Shown here: one piece after another, positions 9,765-29,176 of the stretch | How the letters are laid out: each line of letters opens with the position of its first letter | How positions within the stretch are numbered: position 1 is the first letter of the stretch | Virus record (IMG/VR): IMGVR_UViG_3300050015_000167 | Location: 1 to 64,000 of that record | Reading direction: 5' to 3' (one strand) | Length of the DNA: 64,000 nt | From: a virus | Notes under the pieces: model-generated | What the model was told of the DNA's origin: nothing | Databases searched by the model: none | What the model saw: the letters and a program-made list of their open reading frames with translations, nothing else | Position numbers and translations under genes: made by a program

Positions 9765-9765
9765 A

Positions 9766-10336: not shown

Positions 10337-10350
10337 GAAGCTTGGGCCTG

Positions 10351-10377: not shown

Positions 10378-10393
10378 GAAGGACTGGGCGATT

Positions 10394-10717: not shown

Positions 10718-10725
10718 TTGTCTCC

Positions 10726-11902: not shown

Positions 11903-11919
11903 ACCAAAAAATTTTTTAC

Positions 11920-12090: not shown

Positions 12091-12091
12091 G

Positions 12092-13144
12092 TTATGGCAT
12101 CTCCGGTAATTTATCTTTTACGTCCGAATGAAGCTTTTCAAATTGAGGCCAGAAATCTTTTGGATTGATATGATAACCGGTAAGATCACCAGTGCCATCA
12201 GGAAATGTAATTTCGTAATAGCCAAAGAACGCGCCACCCATATGAGCAACTGGCTTTTCATTTTCGTCCATAATATCGACCATCGAATCAGCAATCTTGA
12301 AACGACACTTACCTTTATGTACACCAGGATGCCAGTCGCAATACACAGGCACAGTGATATAACCTACTGGCTCTTTAGGCGCTTCTTTGTCCCAATTGAC
12401 GATTTCATCCTTTTCTATTTCGAATTCGATCTCTGGCAGAACTTCATCCACATCTGTTTCGATGTATGATATTCCGGGTGAGGGAAGCAAAGCTTTAACA
12501 GGTGTGTCAACATTATTATCAATTTCGACGCTGGATACTCCTGGTGAAATGTAGTTTCGGCCGTCTTCGCCAACCCATTCAGAAGTGTAGCCTTCTGGAC
12601 GTCTCAACTCTCTTCCTTCGGATTGAGTTTCTTTGATTATGGAATCTGTAGCAGTCAGAATGCTAATAGCCTCATCTTGATATGTGGCTTCGAAGACCTT
12701 ATCATGATCTGGTGACGGTAGACCGAAACTATCTCGGAACCATTGTGGAATAGGATCTTCTAGTTTTCCGTCGTCATTAATGACATTGAACATTTCGGAC
12801 ATACCCAATTGTTCAATTTCGTATTGGACAGAATTTCTATATGTAAAGCCAGAAGCGACCATCACAACAGCATTAGGATTATCATGAGCCCATTGAACAA
12901 TGGCATGAGCATTGGATTCCATAAGATCATTGCCTGGTAACATTCCACCGAAGTCATAGACAACCAGATCGGTTCCGGGATCGATAGAACCCGGGCACCA
13001 TACATGCTGGAACCTGATTTCTGCGGGAGCAAGTAGTTCGGTAAAGGTTCTCTTATGGGTCTCTACTTCATCCTCAGCGGTGACATCACCGAAGGCGTGA
13101 CCCATCGGGTCTACAAGAATCGCAACTTTAAGATGTATGTTCAT
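12092..13144 (-). CDS. hypothetical protein (350 aa)
   Basis: Long clean ORF; no motif recognised. Confidence 0.7.
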   Translation of the reverse strand: MNIHLKVAILVDPMGHAFGDVTAEDEVETHKRTFTELLAPAEIRFQHVWCPGSIDPGTDLVVYDFGGMLPGNDLMESNAHAIVQWAHDNPNAVVMVASGFTYRNSVQYEIEQLGMSEMFNVINDDGKLEDPIPQWFRDSFGLPSPDHDKVFEATYQDEAISILTATDSIIKETQSEGRELRRPEGYTSEWVGEDGRNYISPGVSSVEIDNNVDTPVKALLPSPGISYIETDVDEVLPEIEFEIEKDEIVNWDKEAPKEPVGYITVPVYCDWHPGVHKGKCRFKIADSMVDIMDENEKPVAHMGGAFFGYYEITFPDGTGDLTGYHINPKDFWPQFEKLHSDVKDKLPEMP

Positions 13145-13211
13145 AATAATATCATATCACAAAAAATCGTGGGTGTCAAGAGAATATACATATTCTTATA
13201 CGAGGATACTA

Positions 13212-13502
13212 ATGTTTGCTGATTTGATTCTCTATACCGAACCGGTAAGACCAGTTATTAATCCGATGTTCGATCTTTTTGCTTTTCTGGATTTGAAACA
13301 TATTCCGCCAATCCTACCTGCGAAGGTTGTGGACCATGTAGAATTGCGCTTACCAGAAAAGTGTAAAGAAATGGACTTCTTTCCAGATGATATTTGGGAT
13401 TTTATCTTGTGGCAGACAGAAGAGAAAGGTTATACGGTGGTTCGGTATGTAGATTCAAATTGGCTATATTGGGCCCTTTTGGTCAATAAATTAAAACACT
13501 AA
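13212..13502 (+). CDS. hypothetical protein (96 aa)
   Basis: ORF track 13137..13502 would overlap the divergent gene start; internal ATG 13212 preferred. Confidence 0.4.
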   Translation: MFADLILYTEPVRPVINPMFDLFAFLDLKHIPPILPAKVVDHVELRLPEKCKEMDFFPDDIWDFILWQTEEKGYTVVRYVDSNWLYWALLVNKLKH

Positions 13503-13563
13503 ATAGAAGTGATACCTTAATATAATAATAAAGGTCATCGAATTTAGAAAGGATCTAAAAACA

Positions 13564-13881
13564 ATGGCACAGACAGTAAGCGTTCAATATCAGATTAAGC
13601 AATACGGACTTCAGGGTAATGGTGCGGGAGCATTAGGAGCTCTACCTTATCAGTTGATTATCCACTTTCTTAGCGAATCTGAAGCAAGCGTAAAGAATGT
13701 ATTTCTTGGCGACTTCGACACGATTGCCCATGCAAAATATGCGGCAGTAGCATTTTTAACTAATGGATGGGTAACCGGTACTTTCTCAACAGCAGATACA
13801 TATTGGTCTCCTGCGGCAGCGGTAACAACGGCGGCAGAAGTTCTAAGTACGGTAGCCGTATTTACATTACAAGAAAGCTAA
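13564..13881 (+). CDS. small protein, paralog of 14388..14657
   Basis: Shares SEASVKNVFLGDF / SEASPKNVWLKDY and overall layout with the gene on the other side of the GIY-YIG gene. Confidence 0.6.
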   Translation: MAQTVSVQYQIKQYGLQGNGAGALGALPYQLIIHFLSESEASVKNVFLGDFDTIAHAKYAAVAFLTNGWVTGTFSTADTYWSPAAAVTTAAEVLSTVAVFTLQES

Positions 13882-13882
13882 A

Positions 13883-14407
13883 ATGAAACACAAGTATTCG
13901 GTGTATAAGCATACGAATACTATTTCTCGTAAAGCTTATATTGGATATACAAAGAAAACTATGAAACAAAGATGGAGCGACCATTTATATCGTTCCAGAA
14001 AATATAGTTTTGATAGAAAATTCGATAATGCTTTACGGGAATATCCGATGAATTTATGGGAAAATGAAATTTTATTTTCTGATATTAAAACTTTAGAAAA
14101 AGTCAAAAAATTAGAAATTGAAATGATTTCCAAATATGATACCTTCAATAATGGATACAATAGTAATCCAGGTGGAGGAGGTCACATACATTCTAAAGAA
14201 ACTAATTTGAAAATATCTAATTCTAAAAAGGGTCATTCTTATAATTTAGGATCTAAGCGTTCTGAAGAAACGAAAAAGAAAATGTCTCTTTCCAAGTTAG
14301 GAAATAAAAATTGTTTAGGACGTATTTTATCCAAAAAAACTAAAAAACAAATTAGTGTTTCTGAAAAGAAAACCAAAGGAGAAAAACGTGTTTCAATTTT
14401 ATATTAA
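13883..14407 (+). CDS. GIY-YIG homing endonuclease with NUMOD3-like repeats
   Basis: YSVYKHTN...KAYIGYTKKTMKQRWSDH (GIY-YIG); C-terminal KKGHSYNLGSKRSEETKKKMS repeats. Confidence 0.85.
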   Translation: MKHKYSVYKHTNTISRKAYIGYTKKTMKQRWSDHLYRSRKYSFDRKFDNALREYPMNLWENEILFSDIKTLEKVKKLEIEMISKYDTFNNGYNSNPGGGGHIHSKETNLKISNSKKGHSYNLGSKRSEETKKKMSLSKLGNKNCLGRILSKKTKKQISVSEKKTKGEKRVSILY

Positions 14408-14657
14408 ACGGTATGGAACATGGGGAGATAATGCGGATCTTACTAGTGCGTATCCTCCTACTTCGTTCCAATTAACACTCAGAGTGGTAGGCGTTTCAGA
14501 AGCCTCACCCAAAAACGTGTGGTTGAAAGACTATACCTCACTAGCACTAGCTAAAAATGGAGCGGCTGCATTATTCGCATCAGGAACAGTAACACCCTGG
14601 GTAGATAATGCCAACTCTTATGAAAGCTTAAGCGCAGTATTCACACCTACTTTCTAG
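14388..14657 (+). CDS. small protein, paralog of 13564..13881
   Basis: AAGGAG then GTG 14388 (ORF track start 14355); overlaps the 3' end of the endonuclease gene. Confidence 0.55.
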   Translation: MFQFYIKRYGTWGDNADLTSAYPPTSFQLTLRVVGVSEASPKNVWLKDYTSLALAKNGAAALFASGTVTPWVDNANSYESLSAVFTPTF

Positions 14658-14680
14658 GGTCAGTTTGTTGTGAATCCAAG

Positions 14681-14715
14681 AAAAAGGGTTGTCTCTTCGG
14701 AGACAACCCTTTTTC
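14681..14715. terminator. bidirectional rho-independent terminator
   Basis: AAAAA-GGGTTGTCTC-TTCG-GAGACAACCC-TTTTT between convergent gene sets. Confidence 0.8.
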
Positions 14716-14859
14716 ATTATACGGAGGGGATATGAAAGTTAAAAGCGTATTCATACCGTTATGGATTGGTTGGGGCATTTCAATAATGCCAAAAAGTAGT
14801 ATGAGAATGATTCAAGATAAACGGCCAGATTTATTTGGACCGAATTCTCCTTATAGCAT

Positions 14860-15219
14860 TCATGGTTTCTTTACGACAGGAACTTCAACAGGTAGTGGAA
14901 TAAATGCGCCAGTTTTTGAATTTTCCCAAAAAATATCGGCGCATGATCGACACAACCAACCAGAACCACCACAACCGCATGAAATAGGAATGTATCCTTC
15001 TAGACCATAAATTGTTGCTATACCTAGAAGTTCTCCATAAACATTATCATCTGTATGAGGTTCGCTCAAGAAACTGGCAACACCTGATGGAAGAATACTT
15101 CCCAATACAGAACCATCCATATCCCATATCATCAAGACCATTCCTTTTACATCTATACCCTTATAGGATGACCGCATATTCTTAACTAATTCTGGTGTTA
15201 ATCTTATAATATTTTTCAT
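14860..15219 (-). CDS. hypothetical Cys-rich protein (119 aa)
   Basis: ATGA-coupled to 15216..15599. The overlapping + ORF 14732..15010 is judged spurious. Confidence 0.55.
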   Translation of the reverse strand: MKNIIRLTPELVKNMRSSYKGIDVKGMVLMIWDMDGSVLGSILPSGVASFLSEPHTDDNVYGELLGIATIYGLEGYIPISCGCGGSGWLCRSCADIFWENSKTGAFIPLPVEVPVVKKP

Positions 15220-15599
15220 AACAATATATTTTCCATACTGGAGCGAATTTGATTAATTCTTTCTATATTACCTATTTCAGCATACTTTTGTATTGCCAAC
15301 TCATAAAGTTCTACTTGAATGTCAGGAAACAAAGAAATAGTTGGCATCAATGAAATTTCATCGATTTGTTCAGCTTGAGTGGTAATCTTTTCATATTGTG
15401 CTTGGTCTTCAATCTCATGTCGGATAGAAAACTTTCCGATGAAATAAGCAATGAAAGAAAGTGCTGCTGCTAATCCAAGTGCCGGAATCATAGCGGTTAA
15501 AGGAATATGAATGACACACCAAAAACAAAGTGCGAAGATAATAATTCCTGATAAGATGGTTGGTTTAAATGTAAAATTCATTTTGTATGATACTCTCAT
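15216..15599 (-). CDS. membrane protein (127 aa, two predicted TM helices)
   Basis: Hydrophobic stretches ILSGIIIFALCFWCVIHI and MIPALGLAAALSFIAYFIG. Confidence 0.6.
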   Translation of the reverse strand: MRVSYKMNFTFKPTILSGIIIFALCFWCVIHIPLTAMIPALGLAAALSFIAYFIGKFSIRHEIEDQAQYEKITTQAEQIDEISLMPTISLFPDIQVELYELAIQKYAEIGNIERINQIRSSMENILL

Positions 15600-15927
15600 T
15601 TCACATATTCATTATATGTTTTGACTAAATGGTCAAATGCTATAAACACAGATAAAAAACATCGGTTTATAAACATATCAATTTTTTGCTTTTGACTATA
15701 AACTATTGGAGGAGGAATAACTTGTTTCTCAAAATAAGATAGTGGAATAGGAATAAATGCTGATTTCAATTCATCACCATCTGAAGTTTGATATGGATTT
15801 ACATAAGTATTTTTATAATAAGGATTATTACCATGGGTTGTACCCTGATGGCATGTAGGTCCTGTAAAATTATAATTATCGATATTATATGATACTGTAT
15901 AACCAGTTGGACCTTTTCTTCAGACAT
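15596..15927 (-). pseudogene. gene interrupted by a frameshift at an A4 run just after its start
   Basis: ATG 15927 (MSEEK) is out of frame by one with a 105-codon open frame (RKGPTGYTVSYNIDNYNFTGPT...NEYVK). That frame ends in ATGA overlap with 15599. Confidence 0.35.
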
Positions 15928-15929
15928 AA

Positions 15930-16130
15930 CTATTCTCCAGAATAAACCATATTTTCTACTTCTTCAAGAAGCATATCATGATAACGGTCAAGAGTAATAT
16001 CAAATTGTGAGAGTGTCATAACCAATCTATCATTGAAATCTTCCATATCATTCGGTGAAATGAACTCTGGATCATAATTATTCAAAAGTTCATGAACTGC
16101 TTCAAGTAAATTATTTTCATTGGTTGTCAT
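15930..16130 (-). CDS. hypothetical acidic protein (66 aa)
   Basis: First gene of the leftward set. Confidence 0.5.
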   Translation of the reverse strand: MTTNENNLLEAVHELLNNYDPEFISPNDMEDFNDRLVMTLSQFDITLDRYHDMLLEEVENMVYSGE

Positions 16131-16178
16131 TTGGTTTCTCGGTGAAATATTTCGTTCATTCTTATTATCTCATAAATC

Positions 16179-16967
16179 TTGGTGGATGTCAAGCTAAATA
16201 TAGATACTATGTTAAATTCCTATTTTAATTTTTTTAAAGCAGCAAATGAGCAGAATCTTGTAGAAGATTTGGTTATTGAATCCATTCAAATTTATGGAAT
16301 GGATATCAATTATATACCCAAGACTTTAGTAGATTATAATGCGTTGCTCGGTGAAGATCCACAAAAAGCATTCCAACAATATTATACAATTGAATCGTAT
16401 ATGGAAAATATTGAAGGATTCACTGGTATGGGAAATTTCTTGAGCAAGATGGATCTTAACATAGACAAACAAGCCACATTCGTTTTTTCTAAACGAAGAT
16501 TTGATGAAGAGATTTTAGGATTAAATTGGAAAGGTGATTGGGTTTCAACCGTAACATATAATATAAATGATGCGGTACATTATCAAGGAATAATTTATAT
16601 TAGTGTTTATAATTCTAATTTAGGAAATATTCCTGGTTCTAATGCTAATTGGAGTGTAATGCTTCAAGTTCGTCCAAAAGAAGGAGATTTAATTTATCTT
16701 CCTCTTACTCATGATATCTTTGAAATCTTATTTGCCGATCATGAAGAAGTTTTCTATCAATTAGGAAAAATTTATGTTTGGAAAATTACCGCAGAAAAAT
16801 GGCGCGCTAATCATGAAGTTTTCGAAACAGGTAACGCTGAAATCGATGCCATCGCTGCCGAGTTGGATGAAGAAGATGGAGTAACAAAAGATCCGATAGC
16901 AGATAACTCCACTATTGAAGACCGTATGACATCTTTTCTTAATTTGGATCCAAAATCACCATTTTAA
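16179..16967 (+). CDS. g14: neck protein, g14-like (by position upstream of g15), with a CBM5/12-like insertion
   Basis: 262 aa, directly upstream of g15-g16 as in T4. EQNLVEDLVIESIQIYGMDINYIPK motif. Start codon uncertain (TTG/GTG). Confidence 0.5.
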   Translation: MVDVKLNIDTMLNSYFNFFKAANEQNLVEDLVIESIQIYGMDINYIPKTLVDYNALLGEDPQKAFQQYYTIESYMENIEGFTGMGNFLSKMDLNIDKQATFVFSKRRFDEEILGLNWKGDWVSTVTYNINDAVHYQGIIYISVYNSNLGNIPGSNANWSVMLQVRPKEGDLIYLPLTHDIFEILFADHEEVFYQLGKIYVWKITAEKWRANHEVFETGNAEIDAIAAELDEEDGVTKDPIADNSTIEDRMTSFLNLDPKSPF

Positions 16968-16976: not shown

Positions 16977-17498
16977 ATGTATATAATTTATAAGCATACA
17001 AATATCGTTTCTGGAAAATCGTATATAGGATATACAAATAAAACTATAGAAGAAAGATGGAAAATTCATTTACAACGTTCAAAAAATAATTATAAATGGA
17101 AATTCGATAAGGCTCTACGAAAGTATCCAGAAAATTCTTGGAATCATGAAATTTTATGTGAATGTGATACTTTAAAAGAAGCTAATCAAAAAGAAATTGA
17201 AATGATTTCCGTATATAAATCATATAAATATGGTTATAATTCTACATTAGGTGGAGATGGTGGTAGAACTAAAGGAATGACCGGTAAGAAACATTCGGAA
17301 AAAACTAAAGAAAAAATGAGAAGGTCTCGTTTAGGAAAGAAACTTTCTAAAGAAACGAAAAAGAAAATATCATTATCTTGTAAAGGAAAAATAGGTCATC
17401 CAATGTCGTCAGAACATAAAGCTAAATTATTATTATGTCATCTTGGTAAAGATTTAAAAAATAAAAAATTAGCTAAAGGATGTGTCTATGCTCGGTAA
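16977..17498 (+). CDS. GIY-YIG homing endonuclease with NUMOD3-like repeats
   Basis: MYIIYKHTNIVSGKSYIGYTNKTIEERWKIH; inserted between g14-like and g15. Confidence 0.85.
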   Translation: MYIIYKHTNIVSGKSYIGYTNKTIEERWKIHLQRSKNNYKWKFDKALRKYPENSWNHEILCECDTLKEANQKEIEMISVYKSYKYGYNSTLGGDGGRTKGMTGKKHSEKTKEKMRRSRLGKKLSKETKKKISLSCKGKIGHPMSSEHKAKLLLCHLGKDLKNKKLAKGCVYAR

Positions 17499-18239: not shown

Positions 18240-18779
18240 ATGGCAAAAGGACAAAGAGGGCGACCTCCCAAGCAAACAACATCACAGAAGATTACCAGTG
18301 CCTTGGATATAGCGCAAGAAGAAATTACATCTTTGATGCCTATTGAACAACAGAATGCTTTGGTTCCTGTAATACAAACACCAGAAGTTATCGTGGCTGA
18401 ATCTCCACAGATTGTAAAAGATGCCAAAGATGATTATGATTTTGCCAGAAATAATTTACATAATCTTTTAAGTAAGGGTAATAAACTATTGGAAGGTATG
18501 TCGGATTTATGTAGTGAGAGTGATTCACCCAGAGCATTTGAAGTTGCCGGAAATCTTATAAAAACTTTAGTTGAAGGTACAAGAGAGTTAATGACTCTTC
18601 AAAAAGATATTAGAGACGTAGAAAAGAAGAATTCTCCTGATATTACTCCTGTTACTATTGAAAATGCTGAAGAGGTTAATCAATATCATTTGGAAGGCAC
18701 TACAATGGAAATGCTTGAGGCCTTAAATGAAATACGGCGAAAGAAAATAGAAAATCAACAAACCAAGGAAACAAAATAA
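18240..18779 (+). CDS. g16: terminase small subunit g16
   Basis: [14 protein letters not shown]...[19 protein letters not shown]...[10 protein letters not shown] parallels T4 gp16 (DDYGVVRRNMH...NADSPRHMEVFATLMGQM...ILKLHKDMKD). Confidence 0.75.
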
Positions 18780-19924
18780 TGGCTAATCCAAAAACACCAA
18801 TATATCCGAGTGCTCTTGCTACTGACCTTGATTTAAAGGTTGTTACGGATAATGCCTTTTCACCATTAGCTGCCGGTATTGATGGAGTCGTTACAGATAT
18901 ACCTTTCAATACTAATAGCGTATTTACCTTCCCTTGTCTTATTGCCTTGGAAAATGAAGTTATTTTAGCTGTAGGTCCTATTGTTGGTATTAACATTACA
19001 AATTGTCAAAGAGGATATATTGGTAGTGCTGTTCCTCACGCATTTAATATCGTCGGATTTGCTTATATCTTTGGTGACAATATTAATCAAATAACGGCTG
19101 AAATTAAAGCTATCGAAACCGCACTTGGAATATCTATTGTTAATGTAGTAAAACCGGGTGATGCGGCTGCTGGTGATTTGACTGGTACCTATCCGAACCC
19201 AACATTAGTAGCAACAGCAGTTACTCCAGGAACATATGGAACAGGTGTAGCTACTCCAGTAATTATTGTAGATCAAAAAGGAAGAATTACAAGTTTAACA
19301 ACTACTCCTACTTTGGGAGCAACAGGACCTACAGGACCTACTGGTTATACTGGTCCTGGTAACTTTACAGGATATACTGGATATACAGGGGTAACAGGAC
19401 CTACCGGTTTTACTGGTTTTACTGGTCCTGGTAATTTCACAGGATATACAGGACCCATTGGTCCTACTGGAGCAACTGGACCTACTGGTTTCACAGGATT
19501 CACTGGTCCTGGTAATTTTACAGGATATACAGGATATACAGGACCTACTGGTTATACAGGAATAACAGGACCCACTGGTTATACAGGATCTGGTAACTTC
19601 ACTGGTTATACTGGTTATACAGGACCTACAGGAGCAGGAGCAACAGGACCTACTGGGTTTACTGGATATACAGGAGCAGGAGCAACAGGACCCACTGGGT
19701 TTACTGGACCTGTAGGATATACTGGTCCGGGTAATTTCACAGGATATACTGGACCTACTGGTCCAAGTCAATGGACAACATCTGGTAGTGATATTTCTTT
19801 TGTATCAGGACGAATTATTATAAATGCTCCTACTTATGCTACAGATGGGGCCGCCGGTTCAGGAGGTCTTACAACCGGTATGGTTTATAAGCATTCAGAT
19901 GGTAGTCTTCAAGTCAAACTTTAA
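18779..19924 (+). CDS. collagen-like (G-X-T) fibre protein A
   Basis: About 180-aa N-domain nearly identical to that of 19949..21763, then about 150 aa of GPT/GYT/GFT triplets with 5 GNFTG interruptions (about 19316-19765). Confidence 0.85.
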
Positions 19925-19936
19925 GGATAAAGAGAA

Positions 19937-19944
19937 CTAAATAC
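19937..19944 (+). promoter_or_regulatory. CTAAATAC motif 4 nt before the start codon
   Basis: AACTAAATAC-TTTT-ATG 19949. Confidence 0.3.
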
Positions 19945-19948
19945 TTTT

Positions 19949-21763
19949 ATGGCTAATCCAAATACTCCAGTATATCCGAGTGCTCTTGCTACCGATTTGA
20001 ATTTAAAAGTCGTTACCGATAATGCTTTTTCTCCATTAGCTGCCGGTATTGATGGAGTAGTCACCGATATACCTTTTAATACCAATACTGTTTTTACATT
20101 CCCTTGTCTCATTGCTTTAGAGAATGAAATTATCTTGGCCGTTGGACCTATTGTTGGTATCAATATTACAAATTGTCAAAGAGGATATATTGGTAGTGCT
20201 GTTCCTCATGCGATGAATGTTGTAGGATTTGCTTATATCTTTAGTGACAATATCAATCAGATAACAGCCGAAATTAAAGCTATTGAGACCGCTTTAGGGG
20301 TAAATTTAGGTAATGTTGTTACTCCAAGTACGGCAGCCGGTGGTGATCTCGTAGGATTTTATCCTAACCCAACATTAGCAGCAACCGCAGTTACACCAAA
20401 TATATATGGTGATAATACCCATATTCCTGTAATTACTGTTGACCAAAAAGGACGCATAACAAATGTAAACCCTGTTCTTATTGGCGGCGCAACTGGTCCC
20501 ACAGGTTATACAGGGTATACTGGTTCTGCTGGTCCTACAGGATATACTGGGTTCACTGGCCCGGGTAATTTTACAGGTCCTACTGGTTATACAGGTCCTA
20601 CTGGTTATACAGGAGATACTGGTCCAGGTAACTTTACGGGTTATACAGGTTATACTGGATTTACAGGTTCAACTGGTTATACTGGTCCTATGGGATCTAC
20701 AGGACCAGGTAACTTTACAGGTTACACTGGTTATACAGGTTACACTGGACCAGCAATCACAGGCCCTACCGGTTATACGGGTTACACAGGAGCAGGAAAC
20801 TTTACTGGATATACAGGACCTACTGGATATACTGGTTTCACTGGTGCCACAGGTCCTGTAGGATATACAGGTGCTACAGGTTTTACTGGATATACGGGGA
20901 TGGGTTCAACCGGACCCACTGGTCCCGGTAACTTTACAGGATATACTGGTCCTACTGGTTTTACAGGTTATACGGGTGCGACAGGATTTACTGGTCCGGG
21001 TAACTTTACTGGATATACGGGACCTACAGGATATACAGGAGCTACTGGTTATACAGGTCCAGGTAACTTCACGGGATATACGGGTTACACCGGACCCACA
21101 GGATTCACTGGTCCTATAGGACCTACAGGTTATACAGGATTCACTGGCCCAGGTAACTTTACGGGATATACGGGTTATACTGGAGAAACTGGTCCTACGG
21201 GGTACACTGGTCCTGGAAACTTTACAGGACCTACAGGTTATACTGGTCCCGGTAATTTCACAGGATACACCGGACCAACAGGATATACCGGACCCGGTAA
21301 CTTTACAGGTTATACAGGATATACTGGTCCTAATGGACCTACAGGTGCGACCGGTTATACTGGTCCTATCGGTCCTACTGGAGCAACTGGTTATACTGGT
21401 CCTGGTAACTTTACAGGATATACGGGATATACGGGATATACAGGATATACTGGTCCAGGCAACTTTACCGGTTATACAGGATATACAGGACCTATTGGTC
21501 CCACGGGTTATACGGGGTACACTGGATATACTGGCCCTGGCGCAAGTTCATATGCGGTTCTTATTGGAGATGCTGCCGCAAGTACATTTACTGTTACTCA
21601 TAATTTGAATGCGGCGCATGTTTTTGTTTCGGTAAAAGATGCTACCTCAACATATCTTGTATTTCCAGATATTTCGATTACATCAAATAATGCTATTTCT
21701 GTAGCTTTTTCTATTATACCAACTCTTAACCAATATCTTGTTTCGGTTATAGGATTCGCATAA
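19949..21763 (+). CDS. collagen-like (G-X-T) fibre protein B
   Basis: Same N-domain, about 350 aa of G-X-T triplets with 13 GNFTG interruptions (about 20484-21540), about 70-aa C-terminal beta-rich domain. Confidence 0.85.
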
Positions 21764-21767
21764 AAAT

Positions 21768-22877
21768 ATGGCGAGAATATTTAATATTTCTCCTAATTGG
21801 CAGATTGATTGTGAAACTGCCAATTTTGGAAGTCAGGTTACTACGGATCAAATTAGTTTACCTAATTGGAATAATCTTGCTTTATTATTATCAAGAGGTA
21901 TCACTGGAGGAACTGTATTTACAAATCCTATAGCATCTACTTATAGTATAATATCTAATACCTATTATGGTGGAGTTTTAGCACCTAATGGTGATATACA
22001 TTTTGTTCCTCTAAATGCTGTTGTAGGACAAAAGATTTCTGCTGCTGGTGTTGTTTCTACTTACAGTTTGGTATATACCGTTGGTAGTATGAACACTGGT
22101 GGAGTTTTATCGCCTAATGGTGATATACATTTTGTACCTTATACTGCTTCTGTAGGACAAAAAATAAATTCTTCAGGTGTAGTATCAACTTATAGTTTGG
22201 TATATACCACCGCAACGGCTTATGTTGGTGGAGTTTTAGCGCCTAATGGTGATATACATTTTATACCATTTTTTGGTAGTGTAGGACAAAAAGTGTCCGT
22301 GGCTGGTGTTGTTTCTACTTATAGTTTAGTATATACTACCGCTAATGCATATTCTGGTGGAGTTTTAGCACCTAATGGTGATATATATTTTATGCCCAGG
22401 TCGGCTACTGTAGGACAAAAAGTATCTTCTACTGGTGTGGTATCGACATATAGTTTGGTATATACTACCGCTTCTGCTTGTACTGGTGGTGTAATTGATC
22501 CTAATGGTAATATACATTTGGTGCCTCAAAATGCTTCTGTAGGACAGAAAATATCTATTACGGGTGTTGTTTCTACTTATAGCTTGGTATATACTACCGC
22601 TAATGCATATTCTGGTGGAGTTTTAGCACCTAATGGTGATATACACTTTATACCGTTATCTGCTGCTGTCGGACAAAAAGTATCTCCTGCTGGTGTGGTT
22701 TCTACTTATAGTTTGGCATATACCGCTCCCACCGCGCATCTTGGTGGAATACTTTTACCTAATGGTGATATACATTTTATACCATTTTTTGGTAGTGTAG
22801 GACAAAAATTAACAACAGGAGCAGGTGTTAATTTTGGTATAGGAACTTGTTGTTCTCCTTATCTAAATAAATTTTAG
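21768..22877 (+). CDS. 7 x 43-aa repeat protein (beta-propeller-like), paralog 1
   Basis: Seven GGVLAPNGDIHF[VI]P...VGQK[IV]S..GVVSTYSLVYTT units; C-terminus CCSPYLNKF. Confidence 0.8.
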   Translation: MARIFNISPNWQIDCETANFGSQVTTDQISLPNWNNLALLLSRGITGGTVFTNPIASTYSIISNTYYGGVLAPNGDIHFVPLNAVVGQKISAAGVVSTYSLVYTVGSMNTGGVLSPNGDIHFVPYTASVGQKINSSGVVSTYSLVYTTATAYVGGVLAPNGDIHFIPFFGSVGQKVSVAGVVSTYSLVYTTANAYSGGVLAPNGDIYFMPRSATVGQKVSSTGVVSTYSLVYTTASACTGGVIDPNGNIHLVPQNASVGQKISITGVVSTYSLVYTTANAYSGGVLAPNGDIHFIPLSAAVGQKVSPAGVVSTYSLAYTAPTAHLGGILLPNGDIHFIPFFGSVGQKLTTGAGVNFGIGTCCSPYLNKF

Positions 22878-22885
22878 GAACTATT

Positions 22886-24013
22886 ATGGCAAACAATTCA
22901 ATCTCGACAGAATGGAATTCAGAAGTAACCTCACAAAATTGGGGTTTATATCCTTCTGGTGATAATAGTTCAATCGATACCGCATTAGTCGCATGGTATA
23001 ATTTACAGAATCTTATTGGAAAAAGTACGAACAGAGGAACAACATTTGCGAATGGAGTTATTTCTACTTACAGTCTGGTTTATACAACTACTAATGCCTA
23101 TATTAGTGGAGTACTTTCACCTAATGGAGATATTCATTTTATACCTTTTAGTGCTCCTGTAGGACAAAAAATAAATTCTTCTGGTGTTGTATCTACTTAT
23201 AGTTTGGTATATACTACTACATCTAATTATGCTGGTGGAGTACTCGCCCCTAATGGTGATATTCATTTTGTTTCTTACAATGCTGCTAAAGGACAAAAAA
23301 TAAATTCTTCTGGTATTGTTTCTACATATAGTTTGGTATATACAACCACTGGTGCCTATGTTGGTGGAGTACTTTCACCTAATGGTGACATACATTTTGT
23401 TCCTTTTAATGCTGTTGTAGGACAAAAGATTTCTGCTGCTGGTGTGGTTTCTACTTATAGTTTGGTATATACTGCGTCTGGTACGTACCAAGGGGGCACA
23501 CTTGCTCCTAATGGTGATATTCATTTTGTACCTTATTCTGCTACTATAGGTCAAAAGATATCTGCTGCTGGTGTTGTATCAACTTATAGCTTAATATATA
23601 CTACTGTTGGTGCGTATGATGGTGGAGTACTTGCTCCTAATGGGGATACACATTTTGTGCCTCGCGCCGCAATAGTAGGACAAAAAATATCTATTACTGG
23701 TGTTGTTTCAACCTATAGTTTGGTATATACTGCTGCTACGGCATATACAGGTGGTGTACTCGCCCCTAATGGTGATATACATTTTGTTCCTCAATCTGCT
23801 GCTGTAGGACAAAAGATTTCTGCTGCTGGTGTGGTTTCTACTTATAGTTTGGTATATACTACTACGGGTGCTTATTATGGTGGAGTACTTTCACCCAATG
23901 GTGATATTTATTTTATTCCTTTATCATCCGTTGTAGGACAAAAAATATCTACATTACCTGTTATTCCTTTTGATAATGCTCTTTGTCTTTCCCCTTTCTT
24001 TAATAAATTCTAA
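22886..24013 (+). CDS. 7 x 43-aa repeat protein, paralog 2
   Basis: Seven repeats; C-terminus CLSPFFNKF. Confidence 0.8.
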   Translation: MANNSISTEWNSEVTSQNWGLYPSGDNSSIDTALVAWYNLQNLIGKSTNRGTTFANGVISTYSLVYTTTNAYISGVLSPNGDIHFIPFSAPVGQKINSSGVVSTYSLVYTTTSNYAGGVLAPNGDIHFVSYNAAKGQKINSSGIVSTYSLVYTTTGAYVGGVLSPNGDIHFVPFNAVVGQKISAAGVVSTYSLVYTASGTYQGGTLAPNGDIHFVPYSATIGQKISAAGVVSTYSLIYTTVGAYDGGVLAPNGDTHFVPRAAIVGQKISITGVVSTYSLVYTAATAYTGGVLAPNGDIHFVPQSAAVGQKISAAGVVSTYSLVYTTTGAYYGGVLSPNGDIYFIPLSSVVGQKISTLPVIPFDNALCLSPFFNKF

Positions 24014-24017
24014 ATAC
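24010..24017 (+). promoter_or_regulatory. CTAAATAC motif overlapping the upstream stop, 4 nt before the start codon
   Basis: TTCTAAATAC-CATT-ATG 24022. Confidence 0.3.
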
Positions 24018-24021
24018 CATT

Positions 24022-25140
24022 ATGATAAGAGATATTTCCCCAACATTTTTAACAGAAGTTGCTGCCCTCACAAGAGGAACTATACCTACAGGTAACGATA
24101 GTTCTATATCAACTAATCTTGTTTCTTGGACGGGATTTCAGAAACTTCTAAAAGAAGGTGTGAATGGTGGATCTCTATTCAATAATACTGTAGTTTCTAC
24201 TTATAGTTTGGTATATACGAATATTAATAATTCTGCTGGTGGTGTTCTTTCTCAAAATGGAGATATACATTTTATACCAAGATCTTCAGTTGTAGGACAA
24301 AAGATATCGGCTTCTGGTGTTGTTTCAACCTATAGTTTGGTATATACAACTGCTAATGCGTATCATGGAGGAGTACTTGCGCCTAATGGTGATATTCATT
24401 TTGTACCCTTACTTGCGAATAGAGGACAAAAAGTTTCTTCTGCCGGTGTTGTTTCAACCTATAGCTTGGCATATACCGCAGGAAATTATCAAGGCGGTGT
24501 TCTTGCGCCTAATGGTGATATACATTTTGGTCCTCAAGTTGGACCAGGACAAAAAATTTCTGCTGCCGGTGTTGTTTCAACCTATAGTTTGGTATATACG
24601 GTTACTAATGCTTATGTTGGTGGTGTTCTTGCGCCTAATGGTGACATACATTTTGTACCCTATTCTGCTGTTGTAGGACAAAAAATTTCAGCATTAGGTG
24701 TTGTAACCACATATAGTTTGGTATATACAACCGCGGGTGCTTATTATGGTGGAGTACTTTCCCCTAATGGGGATATTCATTTGATACCTAATTCTGCTGT
24801 TGTAGGACAAAAAATATCTATTACTGGTGTAGTATCCACTTATAGTTTGGTATATACAACCGCGGTTGCTTATATTGGTGGTGTACTCGCCCCTAATGGT
24901 GATATACATTTTGTTCCTCAATCTGCTGCTGTAGGACAAAAGATTTCTGCTGCTGGTGTGGTTTCTACTTATAGTTTGGTATATACTAATTCCTTTTCTT
25001 TTATGAGTGGCACACTTGCGCCTAATGGTGATATTCATTTTGTACCCTATTCTTCTGTTGTGGGACAAAAAATTTCAACTAATCCAGGAGTAAAATTTAC
25101 CCTGGGTATTTGTATGAGCCCATTTTTAAATAAATTTTAA
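24022..25140 (+). CDS. 7 x 43-aa repeat protein, paralog 3
   Basis: Seven repeats; C-terminus CMSPFLNKF. 112 bp (24877-24988) are identical to 23750-23861. Confidence 0.8.
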   Translation: MIRDISPTFLTEVAALTRGTIPTGNDSSISTNLVSWTGFQKLLKEGVNGGSLFNNTVVSTYSLVYTNINNSAGGVLSQNGDIHFIPRSSVVGQKISASGVVSTYSLVYTTANAYHGGVLAPNGDIHFVPLLANRGQKVSSAGVVSTYSLAYTAGNYQGGVLAPNGDIHFGPQVGPGQKISAAGVVSTYSLVYTVTNAYVGGVLAPNGDIHFVPYSAVVGQKISALGVVTTYSLVYTTAGAYYGGVLSPNGDIHLIPNSAVVGQKISITGVVSTYSLVYTTAVAYIGGVLAPNGDIHFVPQSAAVGQKISAAGVVSTYSLVYTNSFSFMSGTLAPNGDIHFVPYSSVVGQKISTNPGVKFTLGICMSPFLNKF

Positions 25141-25160
25141 TCTGAATAAATATTATCACT

Positions 25161-26501
25161 ATGTACAACCGCGACAAAATTATTGAAACGATGCACCAAA
25201 TTAAAGATGAGTCTGATACTATTGCTCCTTATGTTGTAATAGCACAACCAAGAAGAATTAAAGAAGAGACTCCCGCCCAAAATTTTGATGGGTATGATAA
25301 CTTACATGTTGACTTACATGGGTTTAGTCATGGATATGTTGATATTGCTGGAGAAAAAGTAGATGTTGCCAGAAATTATTTAATGGAACAGGCTCTACAA
25401 AGTGGAGCCAAATATTTATTTTTTATCGGTGAAGATACAGTAGTTCCTATGAACGCCTTTAAAGTACTTCATAAGACAGCCGAAGAAAATCCTGAAGCGA
25501 TCATTGCTGGCGTTTATTATATAAAATTATCAGATGCTATGATTATGGTAAGAACAGGTGATTGGATCACTATACCTAATGTTGATCCGGGCCAATTGTT
25601 AGAAGCATGGCAAACAGGTATGGATTGTATGATGATTCCTATTACTGTTCTTCAAAAAATAAAAGATTCTTTTCCAGAATTACCATTTTGTTGTATCGGT
25701 AATAATGTAGATGGAATTCCTTTTATTGGAGAAGATAATTTCTTTGCTCATTTAGTTCATAAACTTGGTATCAAAATACTTGTTAATACTGATGTTCAAT
25801 GTTTACATATGGATATTGGTAATGGTAAATATACAGCGCATCCCGATGTGGATTTGAAAAATTACTTTACAAATATTCCTGTTACTGAAAGACTTACTAT
25901 AGCAGATAAGAAATATATTGATGACCGGTGGCTTAATAGATTACCAGAAGGTACAAGCAATTCTAAAAAATATCAACTTGACGATTTTATCAAACTTGGT
26001 TACCCCGTTAAATTCAATATGGGTTGCGGCCGCGATAAATTTGAGGGATATATTGGTATAGACAAATATAATGATGCTGCGGATATTAAAGAAGATGTAA
26101 CCAAATTATCTCTTCCATATTCTTGTGCTGATGAAATTTATGCCTCGCATTTAATTGAGCATATTCCTAATTTTCAAATTCCTGAAGTATTAACTTCATG
26201 GTTTAATATATTAAAACCAGAAGGACAATTAATTTTAGAAACTCCTAATCTGGAAGAATTATGTAAAGATTTTGAGACAGCCACAGAACAAGAACGATAT
26301 ATGATTTCATTGTGTATTTTTGGAGCAATTAATACTGATGGAAAGCAATTTGAAAACGGAACAGCAAGTCCACATTTATGGGGTTTTTATCCTAAAATAT
26401 TAGTAGAGATTCTTGAAAAAATAGGGTTCAAAGAAATAACTGTTCTACCACAAAAGGGATTACATCCTGGTAAGAATTTTAGAATAGAGGCGAAAAAATG
26501 A
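25161..26501 (+). CDS. glycosyltransferase-like N-domain fused to class I SAM-dependent methyltransferase
   Basis: N-part is GT-A-like (YLFFIGEDTVVP). C-part FNMGCGRDKFEGYIGIDK...ASHLIEHIP...LKPEGQLILETPN is a typical methyltransferase. Confidence 0.6.
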   Translation: MYNRDKIIETMHQIKDESDTIAPYVVIAQPRRIKEETPAQNFDGYDNLHVDLHGFSHGYVDIAGEKVDVARNYLMEQALQSGAKYLFFIGEDTVVPMNAFKVLHKTAEENPEAIIAGVYYIKLSDAMIMVRTGDWITIPNVDPGQLLEAWQTGMDCMMIPITVLQKIKDSFPELPFCCIGNNVDGIPFIGEDNFFAHLVHKLGIKILVNTDVQCLHMDIGNGKYTAHPDVDLKNYFTNIPVTERLTIADKKYIDDRWLNRLPEGTSNSKKYQLDDFIKLGYPVKFNMGCGRDKFEGYIGIDKYNDAADIKEDVTKLSLPYSCADEIYASHLIEHIPNFQIPEVLTSWFNILKPEGQLILETPNLEELCKDFETATEQERYMISLCIFGAINTDGKQFENGTASPHLWGFYPKILVEILEKIGFKEITVLPQKGLHPGKNFRIEAKK

Positions 26502-26941
26502 ATGTAACTATTTCCCTAGAAGGATTAAGAAGTTTAGATGCTCCAGAAACCCGGGTCTTGGCTGATATTGCCGTCACCTACAATTCTATTGTATATAATT
26601 GGCAAGTATATATTCCTACTAATACAACAAATTTAGGTGATTTTTTACAGAGTATCAGTGGTTTAATTACGGCTGATATTGATGAAAAGGAAGCCATCTG
26701 GGCTGCTTTAACACCAAAAACTCGTACTATTGATACTGGTATGGATAGTATTACTGTTGCTATTAATAAATCGGAAATTGTTAAGGCAACTATTCCCGAT
26801 TACTATGCTTTGCGTCGGGCAGCCTATCCATCAATTTTAGACCAAATAGGAGCATTATGGAAAGGACCAAAAGATCCTGATTATATTGCTATGCAGCAAG
26901 CCATAGAAACCGTAAAAAATAATATTCCTAAAAAATCATAA
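26498..26941 (+). CDS. hypothetical protein (147 aa)
   Basis: ATGA-coupled to the upstream gene. Confidence 0.6.
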   Translation: MNVTISLEGLRSLDAPETRVLADIAVTYNSIVYNWQVYIPTNTTNLGDFLQSISGLITADIDEKEAIWAALTPKTRTIDTGMDSITVAINKSEIVKATIPDYYALRRAAYPSILDQIGALWKGPKDPDYIAMQQAIETVKNNIPKKS

Positions 26942-26942
26942 T

Positions 26943-28682
26943 ATGACAGAAACTTATCTTGGAAATTCGAGTTTAAAAGATACCAATGTAAAAATCTCTT
27001 GGACACCAAAACGGCTCGCAGAACTACAAAAATGCGAGGAAGATCCCGTGTATTTTATCACGAAATATATCCAAGTAGTAACCATTGACGAAGGTGTAAC
27101 TGATTTTAAACTTTGGGATTTCCAAGCTAAATTGATTGAAACCGTACACGGTAATCGCTATGTTATTACCGTCATGCCTCGTCAAAGTGGTAAATCTACC
27201 ACGATGATTGCTTACTTCCTACATTATATTCTTTTCAACAAATATAAGCGTGTTGGTATCTTGGCTAATAAACGTGATACTGCTATAGAATTACTTTCCC
27301 GTCTTCAATTGGCTTTTGAGTTGTTACCAATGTGGTTACAACAGGGTGTGAAAGTTTGGAATAAAACAAGAATTGAATTAGAAAATGGTTGTATTATTGA
27401 AGCCCATGCTACTTCTGGCGCATCTGTTCGTGGAAAGACATTCAATATTATTTTCTTGGATGAATTTGCTCACATTGAACCAAAATTAGCAGATAAATTT
27501 TGGACATCTACATTTCCTGTTATTTCACAAGGTACAACATCTAAAGTTATAATTGTTTCTACTCCTAATGGAGTTAATCTATTTCATGATTTATGGACAA
27601 AAGCACAATTAGATCATTCGCATAAAGATTGGAACCAATTTATTCCTATTCAAGTTCATTATACTGAAGTTCCTGGTAGAGAAAAAGCTGAATGGGCTGA
27701 AAAGATGGTATCAATTATTGGACAAGATAGATTTGACCAAGAATTTGGTTGTGAGTTTTTGGGATCAGGTGCTACTCTTATTAACGGTAGATTTTTAAAA
27801 CTTTTACCAATTCGATCACCCTTATACTCTCAAAATGGATTAGATGTTTATGAAAATCCTGTTAAAACAATAAATGAACCTCATGTTTATGTTATTACGG
27901 TTGATACAGCACAAGGAAAACAATTAGATTATTCTGCGCTTTGTGTTATGGATGTTACTTCTTCTCCTTATAAAATAGTCGCTAAATATAGGAGTAATGT
28001 AATTCCTCCTGTATTATTTGCCGATCAGATTATACCTATCGCAAAACGGTATAATAATGCTTTCATTCTTATAGAAATGGATGGTCCTGGTTTTCAAGTT
28101 GCGGATGATTTACATCATATTCATGAATATGAAAATATCATGATGGTAGCAACAAAAGGCCGTTCAGGACAAATTTTAGCTACAGGTTTTGGTAATACAG
28201 GAAAAAATGTCCAAAGAGGATTAAAAATGAGTACTCCTGTTCGTAGGACAGGTTGTGCTAATCTTAAAACTCTGATAGAGAATAAAAAATTAGAAATATA
28301 TGATAATGATATTAAAAATGAATTAAATTCCTTTGAATTAAAAGGAGATAAATACCAAGCCGCAGAAGGACACCATGATGATTTAGTAATGACTCTTGTT
28401 ACCTTTTGTTGGTTAACAACCCAAAAACATTTTAGGGATCTCGTGGATTCTGCTGTTAGAGACGATCTATTAGATGAATATGCTCCAAATTTCGATCATG
28501 ATTTGACACCATATGGATGGCTTGAAATTCATCAAGATGTAGAAGAAATTATGTTAACTAAAAAGGATATTTGGAAAAGTGCCCAAAGTGATATTTGGGA
28601 ACATTATGCCGAAAGAGAACGCATAAAAGCCACCATTGATATGGACCGATTAAAACGATTACAAGATTATGGCTGGGCTTAA
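26943..28682 (+). CDS. g17: terminase large subunit g17
   Basis: Walker A MPRQSGKST; Walker B IIFLDEFAH; 579 aa; position before the sheath gene. Confidence 0.9.
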   Translation: MTETYLGNSSLKDTNVKISWTPKRLAELQKCEEDPVYFITKYIQVVTIDEGVTDFKLWDFQAKLIETVHGNRYVITVMPRQSGKSTTMIAYFLHYILFNKYKRVGILANKRDTAIELLSRLQLAFELLPMWLQQGVKVWNKTRIELENGCIIEAHATSGASVRGKTFNIIFLDEFAHIEPKLADKFWTSTFPVISQGTTSKVIIVSTPNGVNLFHDLWTKAQLDHSHKDWNQFIPIQVHYTEVPGREKAEWAEKMVSIIGQDRFDQEFGCEFLGSGATLINGRFLKLLPIRSPLYSQNGLDVYENPVKTINEPHVYVITVDTAQGKQLDYSALCVMDVTSSPYKIVAKYRSNVIPPVLFADQIIPIAKRYNNAFILIEMDGPGFQVADDLHHIHEYENIMMVATKGRSGQILATGFGNTGKNVQRGLKMSTPVRRTGCANLKTLIENKKLEIYDNDIKNELNSFELKGDKYQAAEGHHDDLVMTLVTFCWLTTQKHFRDLVDSAVRDDLLDEYAPNFDHDLTPYGWLEIHQDVEEIMLTKKDIWKSAQSDIWEHYAERERIKATIDMDRLKRLQDYGWA

Positions 28683-28708: not shown

Positions 28709-29176
28709 ATGCAACACATTCATCATATTGAGCCGAAATATTTGATAGGAGAAGATAATTCACCTGATAATCTTACACCTCCAATTTCGGTAGCTTTACA
28801 TGCGGCTTTGCACCAAGATCTTTATGAACATTTTGGAAATACGGAAGATTTAAGAGCCTATAAAATGTTATTAGGAGAATCTTTGAGTGGTATTATGGAT
28901 TCTGAGAAATACCGAAATAAATTATCTGAATCGCAAAAAGGAAATAAAAATAGGTTAGGAACAAAACATTCGGAAGAATCTATATTAAAAATAAGTAATA
29001 AATTAAAATTAAGAAAACATTCGGATGAATCCAAAATAAAAAGTTCCAAAACACAGAAAGGTAAAATACTTTCTAAAGAACACATAGAAAATATGTCGGC
29101 ATCTTTGAAGGGAAGGAAACTTTCTAAAGAACATCGAGAAAATATTGGAAAAGCCATAAAAGCTAAAATGCTCTAA
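28709..29176 (+). CDS. HNH homing endonuclease with NUMOD-like repeats; paralog of 56883..57383
   Basis: HHIEPKYLIGEDNSPDNLTPPISVALHAALH; C-terminal KHSEES/SKEH repeats; sits between g17 and g18. Confidence 0.75.
   Translation: MQHIHHIEPKYLIGEDNSPDNLTPPISVALHAALHQDLYEHFGNTEDLRAYKMLLGESLSGIMDSEKYRNKLSESQKGNKNRLGTKHSEESILKISNKLKLRKHSDESKIKSSKTQKGKILSKEHIENMSASLKGRKLSKEHRENIGKAIKAKML

Follow-up and report, generated by a model that had tools for sequence, protein, structure and literature searches.

Genes between terS and terL

This study concerns a block of seven genes that separates the genes of the small and the large terminase subunit (terS and terL) in a T4-like phage, the IMG/VR virus record IMGVR_UViG_3300050015_000167, whose positions 1 to 64,000 were analysed and are referred to as the window. 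The interval between both terminase genes spans 8.2 kb, and its genes, all on the plus strand and with junctions of -4 to +24 nt, encode two fibres with collagen-like stalks (colA and colB), three propeller paralogs (prop1 to prop3), a putative glycosyltransferase/methyltransferase fusion (GT/MT) and a small protein (orf147), the last five of which we denote as the cassette. The block and its boundaries are composed as follows:

18240..18779, plus strand: terS, gp16-like small terminase and left block boundary (PF11053, PHROG 445)
18779..19924, plus strand: colA, fibre of 381 residues with anchor domain and Gly-X-Thr collagen-like stalk (Pfam Collagen)
19949..21763, plus strand: colB, chimeric fibre of 604 residues (Pfam Collagen)
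21768..22877, plus strand: prop1, predicted 7-bladed beta-propeller paralog with seven PNGD motifs
22886..24013, plus strand: prop2, predicted 7-bladed beta-propeller paralog with blade repeats
24022..25140, plus strand: prop3, predicted 7-bladed beta-propeller paralog with blade repeats
25145..25152, plus strand: AATAAATA, T4-type late-promoter-like motif in the 20-nt gap 5' of the GT/MT gene
25161..26501, plus strand: GT/MT, 446 residues, predicted GT-A glycosyltransferase (~1-262) and class I S-adenosylmethionine (SAM) methyltransferase (~280-446)
26498..26941, plus strand: orf147, conserved small protein of 147 residues with an AlphaFold model
26943..28682, plus strand: terL, gp17-like large terminase and right block boundary (Terminase_6N, Terminase_6C)

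Both boundaries are defined by profile matches, with terS reaching 32.4 bits against the Pfam family DNA_Packaging (cut-off 25) and 86.5 bits against the PHROG terminase small subunit, and terL reaching 83 bits against Terminase_6N (cut-off 22) and 59.2 bits against Terminase_6C (cut-off 22.6), which identifies a T4-type terminase pair above curated cut-offs. The gene order of the window, consisting of gp14, a GIY-YIG homing endonuclease, gp15, terS, the block, terL, an HNH-like endonuclease and gp18 to gp23, shows that the block is surrounded by the late structural genes of a T4-like phage. The gene content and coordinates between terS and terL that had been assigned in an earlier interpretation of the bare DNA (the sequence-only reading) are reproduced exactly by the list of open reading frames (ORFs). 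Its description of tightly coupled genes on the same strand holds for the overlap of the terS stop with the colA start (TAATG) and for that of GT/MT with orf147 (ATGA), but not for a proposed ATGG, which is not an overlap. A single nucleotide separates orf147 from terL and the remaining intergenic gaps measure 4-24 nt. ORFs in alternative frames or in antisense direction (19295-19771, minus; 20481-21608, plus and off-frame; 24317-24676, plus; 24694-25068, minus) are by-products of the repeats in the collagen and propeller genes and not genes themselves. A scan of all block proteins revealed neither a signal peptide nor a convincing membrane segment.

A trivial origin of this arrangement would be an assembly chimera, in which the repeat-rich collagen and propeller genes had been mis-joined into the terminase region. 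Short-read assemblies do break at highly repetitive genes, independent contigs stop inside colA, and a lookup of the exact prop1 sequence found no record of it in other assemblies. Conversely, the segment comprising GT/MT, orf147 and terL and the segment leading from gp14 via the homing endonuclease, gp15 and terS to the start of colA were each recovered in independent assemblies (Logan SRR35915826; JGI 3300050019 and 3300050020), the internal order equals the conserved order of the cassette in dozens of other contigs, and the reading frames and gene junctions are intact. Since both outer junctions were independently assembled, a chimera is ruled out for practical purposes, and we consider its probability as negligible.

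Most genes of the block leave no room between them for independent regulation. The AATAAATA motif is located 8 nt upstream of the GT/MT start codon, with the heptamer ATAAATA at 25146, and the same heptamer is found just 5' of gp18, gp20, gp22, gp23 and other plus-strand genes. It is depleted in the window (19 found compared to 31.6 expected), and 10 of its 14 plus-strand copies (at 11530, 25146, 28696, 29189, 32101, 35460, 36926, 44506, 46728 and 47824) precede ORF starts by 8-73 nt, a placement that appears compatible with T4-type late promoters. The strict TATAAATA has no copy inside the block; the homing-endonuclease-like gene between terL and gp18 has its own at 28695. A scan for sigma-70 promoters gave fewer matches than shuffled sequence, and terminator-like matches in the block, which reside inside repeated 'SPNGD' coding sequence, were discounted. 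The tight packing, the location in the late module and the AATAAATA motif thus lend support at the level of the sequence to the earlier proposal that the block is transcribed with the late structural genes, and they would fit late transcription of T4 type across all seven genes, boosted internally for GT/MT, orf147 and terL.

Properties of the encoded proteins

The stalks of both fibres match the Pfam family Collagen (PF01391) with 39.8 bits in case of colA and 96.3 bits in case of colB (cut-off 27.2). They contain 47 and 101 Gly-X-Y triplets, respectively, which form runs of 3-11 that are periodically interrupted by G.GNFTG, and which carry Thr at the Y position in 35 of 47 and 79 of 101 cases (75-78%) and Pro, Tyr or Phe at X. 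In colA, residues 1 to ~178 comprise an anchor domain and one 'GDLxGxYPNPT' repeat, followed by triplet runs at residues 180-330 and an additional run of three triplets at 357-365, whereas the rest of the short C-terminus is unique. Matches to the Scl1/Scl2/Lcl adhesins of NCBIfam are confined to the Gly-X-Y region and stay at 36-127 bits, compared to cut-offs of 325-500.

The N-terminal 180 residues of colA and colB are 81% identical and thus far closer to each other than either is to any ortholog, which identifies them as a recent tandem duplication. Both N-termini share 41-65% identity with the first ~145 residues of the single fibre of close relatives, which beyond this region continues with 'GGDLxGxYPNPT' repeats and an unrelated C-terminus. 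In an exhaustive HMMER search, the domain was exclusively found at the N-terminus of proteins of 221-992 residues, and residues 120-176 correspond to a repeat that is present in up to 36 copies in giant fibre proteins. The family has no match in Pfam, and a search of the PDB with its profile returned nothing significant. We read this domain as a putative virion anchor with exchangeable distal parts that would define a family of regular residents of the g15-g17 region. colB combines such a resident-type anchor and a long Gly-X-Thr stalk with a C-terminal domain of ~75 residues, as it is found ahead of prop1 in phages with the cassette. Its last 85 residues are 33-41% identical to the C-termini of cassette-type upstream fibres (E 2e-16 to 4e-22), whereas fibre C-termini of its own lineage were only matched at E values of at least 0.16, and they also match the C-terminal ends of PHROG structural-protein families. 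For that reason, colB is chimeric, with a resident anchor and a donor-type tip.

Each of the three propeller proteins contains seven PNGD motifs with a period of 42-43 residues, which suggests seven blades and agrees with the tandem repeats of ~40-45 residues by which a seven-bladed beta-propeller would be recognized. The blades within one propeller are 55-65% identical and the paralogs share 63-69% identity with each other. Such high identity between blades resembles propeller lectins. The C-terminal motif of prop1 is CCSPYLNKF, and 138 of 147 unique propeller homologs end in NK[F/Y/L], while about half of the homologs carry the motif [AG]DNSS ahead of blade 1, compared to a background of 7%. 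Assignment to the Virginiamycin B lyases was rejected, with 36.4-46.8 bits for PF24684 (cut-off 50) and 32-52 bits for the NCBIfam Vgb(A)/(B) models (cut-off 600). Since the similarity is at the repeat level, including that to PDB 2qc5 (E 3e-7 across the repeats only), and below every cut-off, we place the propellers outside of this family. With respect to their position, prop2 finds its best match in the second propeller of 7 of 10 other loci and prop3 in the third of 6 of 10, and 58, 79 and 79 of 110 positional comparisons fall on the diagonal. A strict one-to-one orthology of the three propellers was thus not adopted, as its support is partial with prop1 being ambiguous, a pattern that would be compatible with an old triplication combined with some homogenisation. 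Longer variants of the propellers contain an N-terminal ConA-like lectin domain matching the PHROG families 'baseplate wedge' and 'virion structural', and in the cultured Cylindrospermopsis phage Cr-LKS4, a distant propeller forms the C-terminus of a protein of 1,130 residues, which is encoded two genes downstream of an annotated virion structural protein.

The AlphaFold model of GT/MT (pLDDT 80.6) suggests that two enzymes are joined in this protein, which is devoid of a signal peptide or transmembrane segment. Its first half matches a PHROG glycosyltransferase (PHROG_34859, E 6e-9) but no Pfam glycosyltransferase family, and a sequence search of the PDB found nothing significant. The best match among solved glycosyltransferases is A197 of STIV (PDB 2c0n), a viral GT-A enzyme with 20% sequence identity (Foldseek E 2.8e-8, TM 0.73). 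Among 38 homologs, the motif G90-E91-D92, which follows the strand 85-89, is invariant, as is G190-E191-D192, and the Rossmann-like model with its acidic DxD-type motif is that predicted for a GT-A fold. The second half is slightly below the cut-offs of Methyltransf_23 (24.7 vs 27) and Methyltransf_11 (19.4 vs 21.2) in Pfam, its family profile matches PDB 3dli (E 1.7e-5), and Foldseek relates it to many SAM methyltransferases (E 2e-8). It contains a GxG SAM-binding motif, and N286, G288 and D301 are invariant and G290 and D292 nearly so in the same 38 homologs. Elsewhere, this GT-A domain is joined to a Methyltransf_24/TylF-like domain that is not homologous to the one in the window (L125:10001-11329, also L040, L042, L058, L060, L084 and related loci). 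This switch from a Methyltransf_23/11-like domain is an apparent replacement that would have kept the combined function, and since one glycosyltransferase domain is joined to two non-homologous methyltransferase classes, we argue that glycosyl transfer together with methylation is the property under selection.

In nearly all loci where it is present, orf147 follows the glycosyltransferase directly or after one intervening ORF. Its AlphaFold model has a pLDDT of 91.5, and fold searches against the PDB and BFVD gave no match (best E 0.16 and 8.5e-3, TM at most 0.36). There is equally no match in Pfam or NCBIfam and nothing significant in a PDB sequence search, with PHROG_1787, a family of unknown function, as the sole PHROG match (E 3e-4). 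A relation to tail-fibre assembly chaperones of the Tfa, gp38 or gp57 type was considered, and in these searches neither sequence nor fold was similar to a known chaperone family.

Distribution and origin of the cassette

In T4, g16 and g17 are adjacent. The sequence-only reading had regarded this adjacency as the norm and the block as a single lineage-specific insertion that splits both terminase genes. The region is not close to any GenBank phage at the level of DNA (megablast with 13 kb found no match), and the best matches of its TerL among isolates are those of marine Kyanoviridae, with 45-49% identity. In the annotation of such phages, terS and terL are separated by 2 kb and two genes in HTVC008M, by 5.4 kb and twelve genes in P-TIM40, and by 6.6 kb and sixteen genes in S-H25. 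Close relatives are found in IMG/VR, with TerL proteins that are 68-81% identical to that of the window. Upon mapping the window proteins onto these loci, 13 of them were found to contain a single fibre gene of ~470-513 residues between terS and terL, whereas in two others (L022 and L023) terS abuts terL and the interval is empty. Neither propellers, GT/MT nor orf147 were detected within 10 kb at the mapped loci of close relatives. More distant T4-like contigs carry two tandem anchor-domain genes between gp15 and terL, and in two loci (L203:2611-7656 and L204:1747-6743), genes of a large Gly-rich protein and of a small Peptidase_S26-like protein are located ahead of such a tandem pair of anchor-domain fibres.

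A hypervariable region between g15 and g18 with 4-14 inserted genes has been described for cyanomyoviruses (Millard et al. 2009, as summarised in PMC2984593), and the window, with its seven genes between terS and terL and relatives that contain 0, 1 or many, conforms to the hyperplastic region as defined there. In both cases, variable genes reside within the conserved g13-g23 module, with neck/terminase genes on one side and the sheath gene on the other, and P-TIM40, S-H25 and HTVC008M display this variability directly. However, the published cargo mostly consists of small ORFs and host-derived metabolic genes (ptoX, plastocyanin, carbon metabolism), in contrast to the complete fibre/propeller/glycosyltransferase module of the window, whose lineage, with a TerL that is at most 49% identical to that of any isolate, is also not cyanophage-like. 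The idea of a hotspot for accessory cargo was thus correct, although it is not new in light of the published region, and since this region is known to be variable, the split of the terminase genes itself carries little weight. The adjacency of both genes in T4 and in L022 and L023 speaks for such an insertion. Still, the interval is occupied in most close relatives and in each of the three cultured marine phages whose annotation was inspected, the cassette is common beyond this lineage, and the variability of the site is already on record (PMC2984593). The single insertion is thus largely refuted and in our view very unlikely. The comparison of synteny that had been suggested with it, and by which a common occurrence of the same genes in relatives was to count against it, finds the interval filled in most of them. 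It gives a divided answer, as the fibre part is a normal resident in close relatives, whereas the cassette was not seen there in any sampled one.

The cassette itself has a broad distribution, which contradicts the earlier assignment of the block as specific to this lineage. The propellers are related to 152 stretches in IMG/VR and to 936 database homologs, compared to 796 for GT/MT and 149 for orf147, of which none is named in case of orf147 and almost none across the cassette proteins. Among 91 fetched loci, the glycosyltransferase directly follows the propellers in 76, and orf147 follows the glycosyltransferase in 74. More than 70 loci in IMG/VR, from distantly related T4-like phages, carry the complete set of three propellers, glycosyltransferase and orf147, and the TerL, gp15 and terS of these phages are 41-46%, 29-37% and 31-36% identical to the respective window proteins. 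Where contigs are sufficiently long, the order is large fibre, three propellers, GT(MT), orf147, gp13, gp14, gp15, terS, terL and gp18, and the cassette is usually found 1-6 kb upstream of the gp14-gp15-terS-terL genes. In none of the sampled close relatives is it located between terS and terL. A tblastn search of cultured phages did not find the cassette in any of them, with two weak matches for the propeller and none for GT/MT. Two cassette-bearing phages contain further genes in this region, in one case a fibre-like protein of 251 residues and a structural-type protein of 1,026 residues between gp15 and terS (L036:15754-19765), in the other an ORF of 323 residues between terS and terL (L035:14229-15200).

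The location of the cassette in other phages coincides with the gp13/gp14-proximal end of the host recognition cluster of pelagimyophages and cyanomyophages, a hypervariable island of tail fibres, collagen-repeat and ConA-domain proteins and glycosyltransferases that ends at gp14 (Zaragoza-Solas et al. 2020, PMC7029224). While this cluster is located upstream of gp14, the module of the window resides between terS and terL and is thus, downstream of gp14, gp15 and terS, outside of the cluster as defined from the baseplate gene VrlC to the neck gene gp14. The arrangement of three propellers, GT/MT and orf147 is not mentioned in PMC7029224, where the word 'propeller' has no occurrence.

In contrast to the single accessory block that had been proposed, the interval thus contains a composite of a resident fibre gene and an imported or relocated cassette. 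In its own lineage, the site is normally occupied by one fibre gene of ~500 residues with a conserved N-terminus of ~145 residues and variable distal parts. In the window, this resident is duplicated in colA and colB and equipped with Gly-X-Thr stalks, and the full cassette is located 3' of colB. In a tree of TerL proteins, the window is sister to L004, L022 and L023, with L018, L009 and L012 and then L013 branching outside. Apart from L012, whose contig ends short of the terS-terL interval, all of these relatives lack the cassette at this site. As the branches around the window are devoid of the cassette at this site, a single gain on its own branch requires fewer events than three or more losses. 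Contigs of the same lineage were also absent among the best 80 hits of either IMG/VR scan with a cassette gene, although two of them are near-complete (175.7 and 179.7 kb). We thus favour a scenario in which the cassette would have been captured, or relocated, by recombination within the fibre gene, with the 3' end of a donor fibre gene and its downstream genes arriving together.

The identity of 60-70% between the glycosyltransferase and cassette of the window and those of other cassette phages, compared to 41-46% for TerL, was considered as proof of such a transfer and found insufficient. As the same offset is observed among all cassette phages, it is not diagnostic, and the argument for transfer instead rests on the phylogenetic distribution and the chimeric nature of colB. 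Hence, a cassette that is ancestral and vertically inherited, which would have moved with the fibre gene into the terS-terL interval and would later have been lost repeatedly or be sited elsewhere in close relatives, has to be weighed as an alternative. It would account for the fact that the identities of glycosyltransferase and propellers scale with TerL roughly as among other cassette phages, for the equivalent position of the resident fibre and for a neck module that is rearranged in this lineage anyway, with gp13 missing from the window and inverted in L023. It would, however, demand at least three independent losses in the TerL tree, it leaves the resident fibre with a C-terminus that is not detectably related to the cassette type, and it is at odds with the fact that neither near-complete relative contig is among the best cassette hits. 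We thus regard this alternative as somewhat unlikely, though worth serious consideration.

A precedent for the capture of a cassette with part of its fibre is provided by Alteromonas phages, where distant phage families have in common a unit that consists of a tail fibre and its cognate accessory gene (PMC10579305). Similarly, the window shares a fibre C-terminus and the downstream genes with phages whose TerL is 41-46% identical. The modules of the Alteromonas phages consist of a fibre and a chaperone cap, whereas the window contains propellers, GT/MT and orf147, and its transfer is suggested by distribution and not by near-identity.

Other parts of the window and of its relatives show further irregularities. 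The late module contains four homing-endonuclease-like genes (13883-14407, 16977-17498, 28709-29176 and 38427-39344), of which two are GIY-YIG, one HNH/NUMOD-like and one PHROG_314-like, and the one between gp14 and gp15 overlaps the start of gp15 by 17 nt. The terL genes of close relatives carry inteins at two sites (L018:7959-10691; L016-L020; L022:7729-10933; L023:8771-12020; L039), the first within the Walker-A motif, as part of a continuous ORF of 910 residues in L018, the second after DQEFG, where L022 and L023 contain an extra ORF that splits it. The window terL contains neither. No homolog of gp13 was found anywhere in the 64-kb window, where the region upstream of gp14 (1-16179) is populated by small minus-strand ORFs, and a minus-strand ORF of 350 residues (12092-13144) was considered as divergent gp13 and rejected. 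In L023, gp13 is inverted and located ~4 kb upstream of gp14 (1546-2280, minus strand). The neck module, which is contiguous in other T4-like phages, is thus broken in this lineage. A GC-rich island at ~4800-11100 (45-62% GC compared to 30-37% around it) is compositionally foreign, poor in ORFs at ~7.3-8.9 kb, contains an ORF of 194 residues with a signal-peptide-like N-terminus (6690-7274) and had no blastn match in GenBank phages. Scans for tRNAs and Rfam families found none. Downstream of gp23, the window encodes a leucine-rich-repeat protein (40832-42058), a weak GT1-like protein (44586-45662) and a protein combining GT2 and TPR parts (47844-49607), which matches a PHROG beta-1,4-glycosyltransferase.

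Proposed role and relation to known systems

Our preferred interpretation, to which we assign a probability of about 0.55, holds that the block is a composite fibre/adhesin module for host recognition in the known g15-g18 hypervariable region, which would be expressed late, contain a captured cassette and possibly be glycosylated. A role in fibres or adhesion had already been proposed in the sequence-only reading, and it appears to be the best account of the encoded proteins. According to this interpretation, the seven genes would be expressed late together with terS and terL, and the collagen proteins would form trimeric fibres that are anchored to the virion by their shared N-terminal domain. 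The three propellers would act as distal multivalent binding heads of the lectin type, the cytoplasmic GT/MT would decorate the Thr-rich fibres, the propellers or both with a methylated glycan, and orf147 may serve as assembly or adaptor factor.

Several observations weigh against this proposal. The glycosyltransferase is equally conserved at loci where the upstream fibre is not rich in Thr, and the collagen threonines are thus not its universal substrate. In searches of Pfam, the PDB and BFVD, the anchor domain, orf147 and the C-terminal domain of colB are without characterised homologs, and the cassette is without a cultured carrier in the tblastn search with propeller and GT/MT. The positional orthology of the propellers is partial, with an ambiguous prop1, the identity of the glycosyltransferase exceeds that of TerL by 15-25 points between any two cassette phages, and the best 80 hits of the scans are the basis on which the genomes of close relatives are considered to lack the cassette altogether. 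Finally, the products are known from their genes alone, from which their location in the virion and their glycosylation are deduced.

A more specific version, which we consider as tentative and on balance unlikely, describes the cassette as self-contained glycoprotein-adhesin system, in which a phage enzyme would place a methylated glycan on the virion's own fibres and/or propeller lectins, and in which the fibre tip would carry the three paralogs as a fixed hetero-assembly. The sequon-like motif [AG]DNSS ahead of blade 1 is a candidate for a glycan site. If correct, T4-like phages would have their first virion-glycosylation system, and a large group of uncultured aquatic myoviruses a mobile host-range module.

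The same genes could alternatively have a non-structural role in host takeover or surface remodelling, where GT/MT would alter precursors of lipopolysaccharide (LPS), capsule or S-layer glycans of the host to prevent superinfection, and the propellers would be cytoplasmic enzymes of the lyase or lactonase type or bind host glycans. This is how glycosyltransferases of the pelagimyophage host recognition cluster were interpreted (PMC7029224), the only named relatives of the propellers, the Vgb lyases, are enzymes, and additional glycosyltransferase genes are present in the window at 44586 and 47844. However, the similarity to Vgb lyases is at the level of the repeats and far below cut-offs, and a single diverged active site would hardly be expected among seven near-identical blades. 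Moreover, the cassette is always located directly 3' of a fibre gene, lectin or structural domains are part of some propeller proteins, and the glycosyltransferase lacks a membrane segment. A non-structural role thus appears improbable to us.

Host-recognition modules decide which bacteria are killed by aquatic T4-like phages, and they are almost entirely unannotated in uncultured lineages. The fixed order of the cassette, its hundreds of homologs and its presence on a different fibre at a different site in the window support its description as portable functional unit, and the window may be viewed as a natural experiment for the swapping of adhesins in T4-like phages through recombination of fibre genes. 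If GT/MT decorates virion proteins, the glycosylation of phage virions would extend from actinophages to T4-like phages, which would bear on models of host range, on the stickiness of particles and on how 'LPS-like' glycosyltransferases, routinely counted as auxiliary metabolic genes, are to be interpreted.

The proposed adhesin function of the propellers has counterparts in the phages phi11, PRD1 and phiKZ, where beta-propellers are part of receptor-binding proteins (PMC6115969). As suggested for the window, the propellers of phi11 Gp45 (5 blades), PRD1 P2 and phiKZ gp131C (7 blades) are host-binding or peripheral tail elements, but there is no detectable sequence relationship to them. Whereas those constitute one domain within a fibre, the window encodes three free-standing paralogs of ~370 residues with a conserved C-terminal ...NKF tail.

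For the enzymatic part, the glycosylation of capsid and tail in mycobacteriophages (Freeman et al. 2023, as cited in PMC12801897) offers a parallel, since soluble GT-A enzymes are encoded beside structural genes, as in the window. Such adjacency is also found in other cassette loci, and it is by adjacency only that a glycosylation of the mycobacteriophage type is linked to them. We found no report on the glycosylation of virions of T4-like phages in the literature. In chloroviruses, virions are glycosylated, and the protein A064R of PBCV-1 combines two glycosyltransferases with a methyltransferase. The fusion of a GT-A domain to a sugar methyltransferase in this protein is comparable to the predicted architecture of GT/MT, although A064R is not among its top 50 fold matches.

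A related architecture is found in Clostridioides difficile (C. difficile), where the GT-A enzyme SgtA, encoded beside the gene of BclA3, O-glycosylates Thr residues in the GPT collagen repeats of this protein (PMC7157674). As in SgtA, where residues 1-260 are followed by a second domain, the window enzyme combines a predicted GT-A unit with a second domain and is encoded near Gly-X-Thr stalks. BclA of Bacillus is another collagen-like glycoprotein of this kind. The likeness to SgtA is one of architecture, and the phage glycosyltransferase is also conserved beside fibres that are not Thr-rich. With respect to these systems, the variable region between g15 and g18 was already known, whereas the widespread and so far unnamed cassette of uncultured T4-like phages is described here for the first time.

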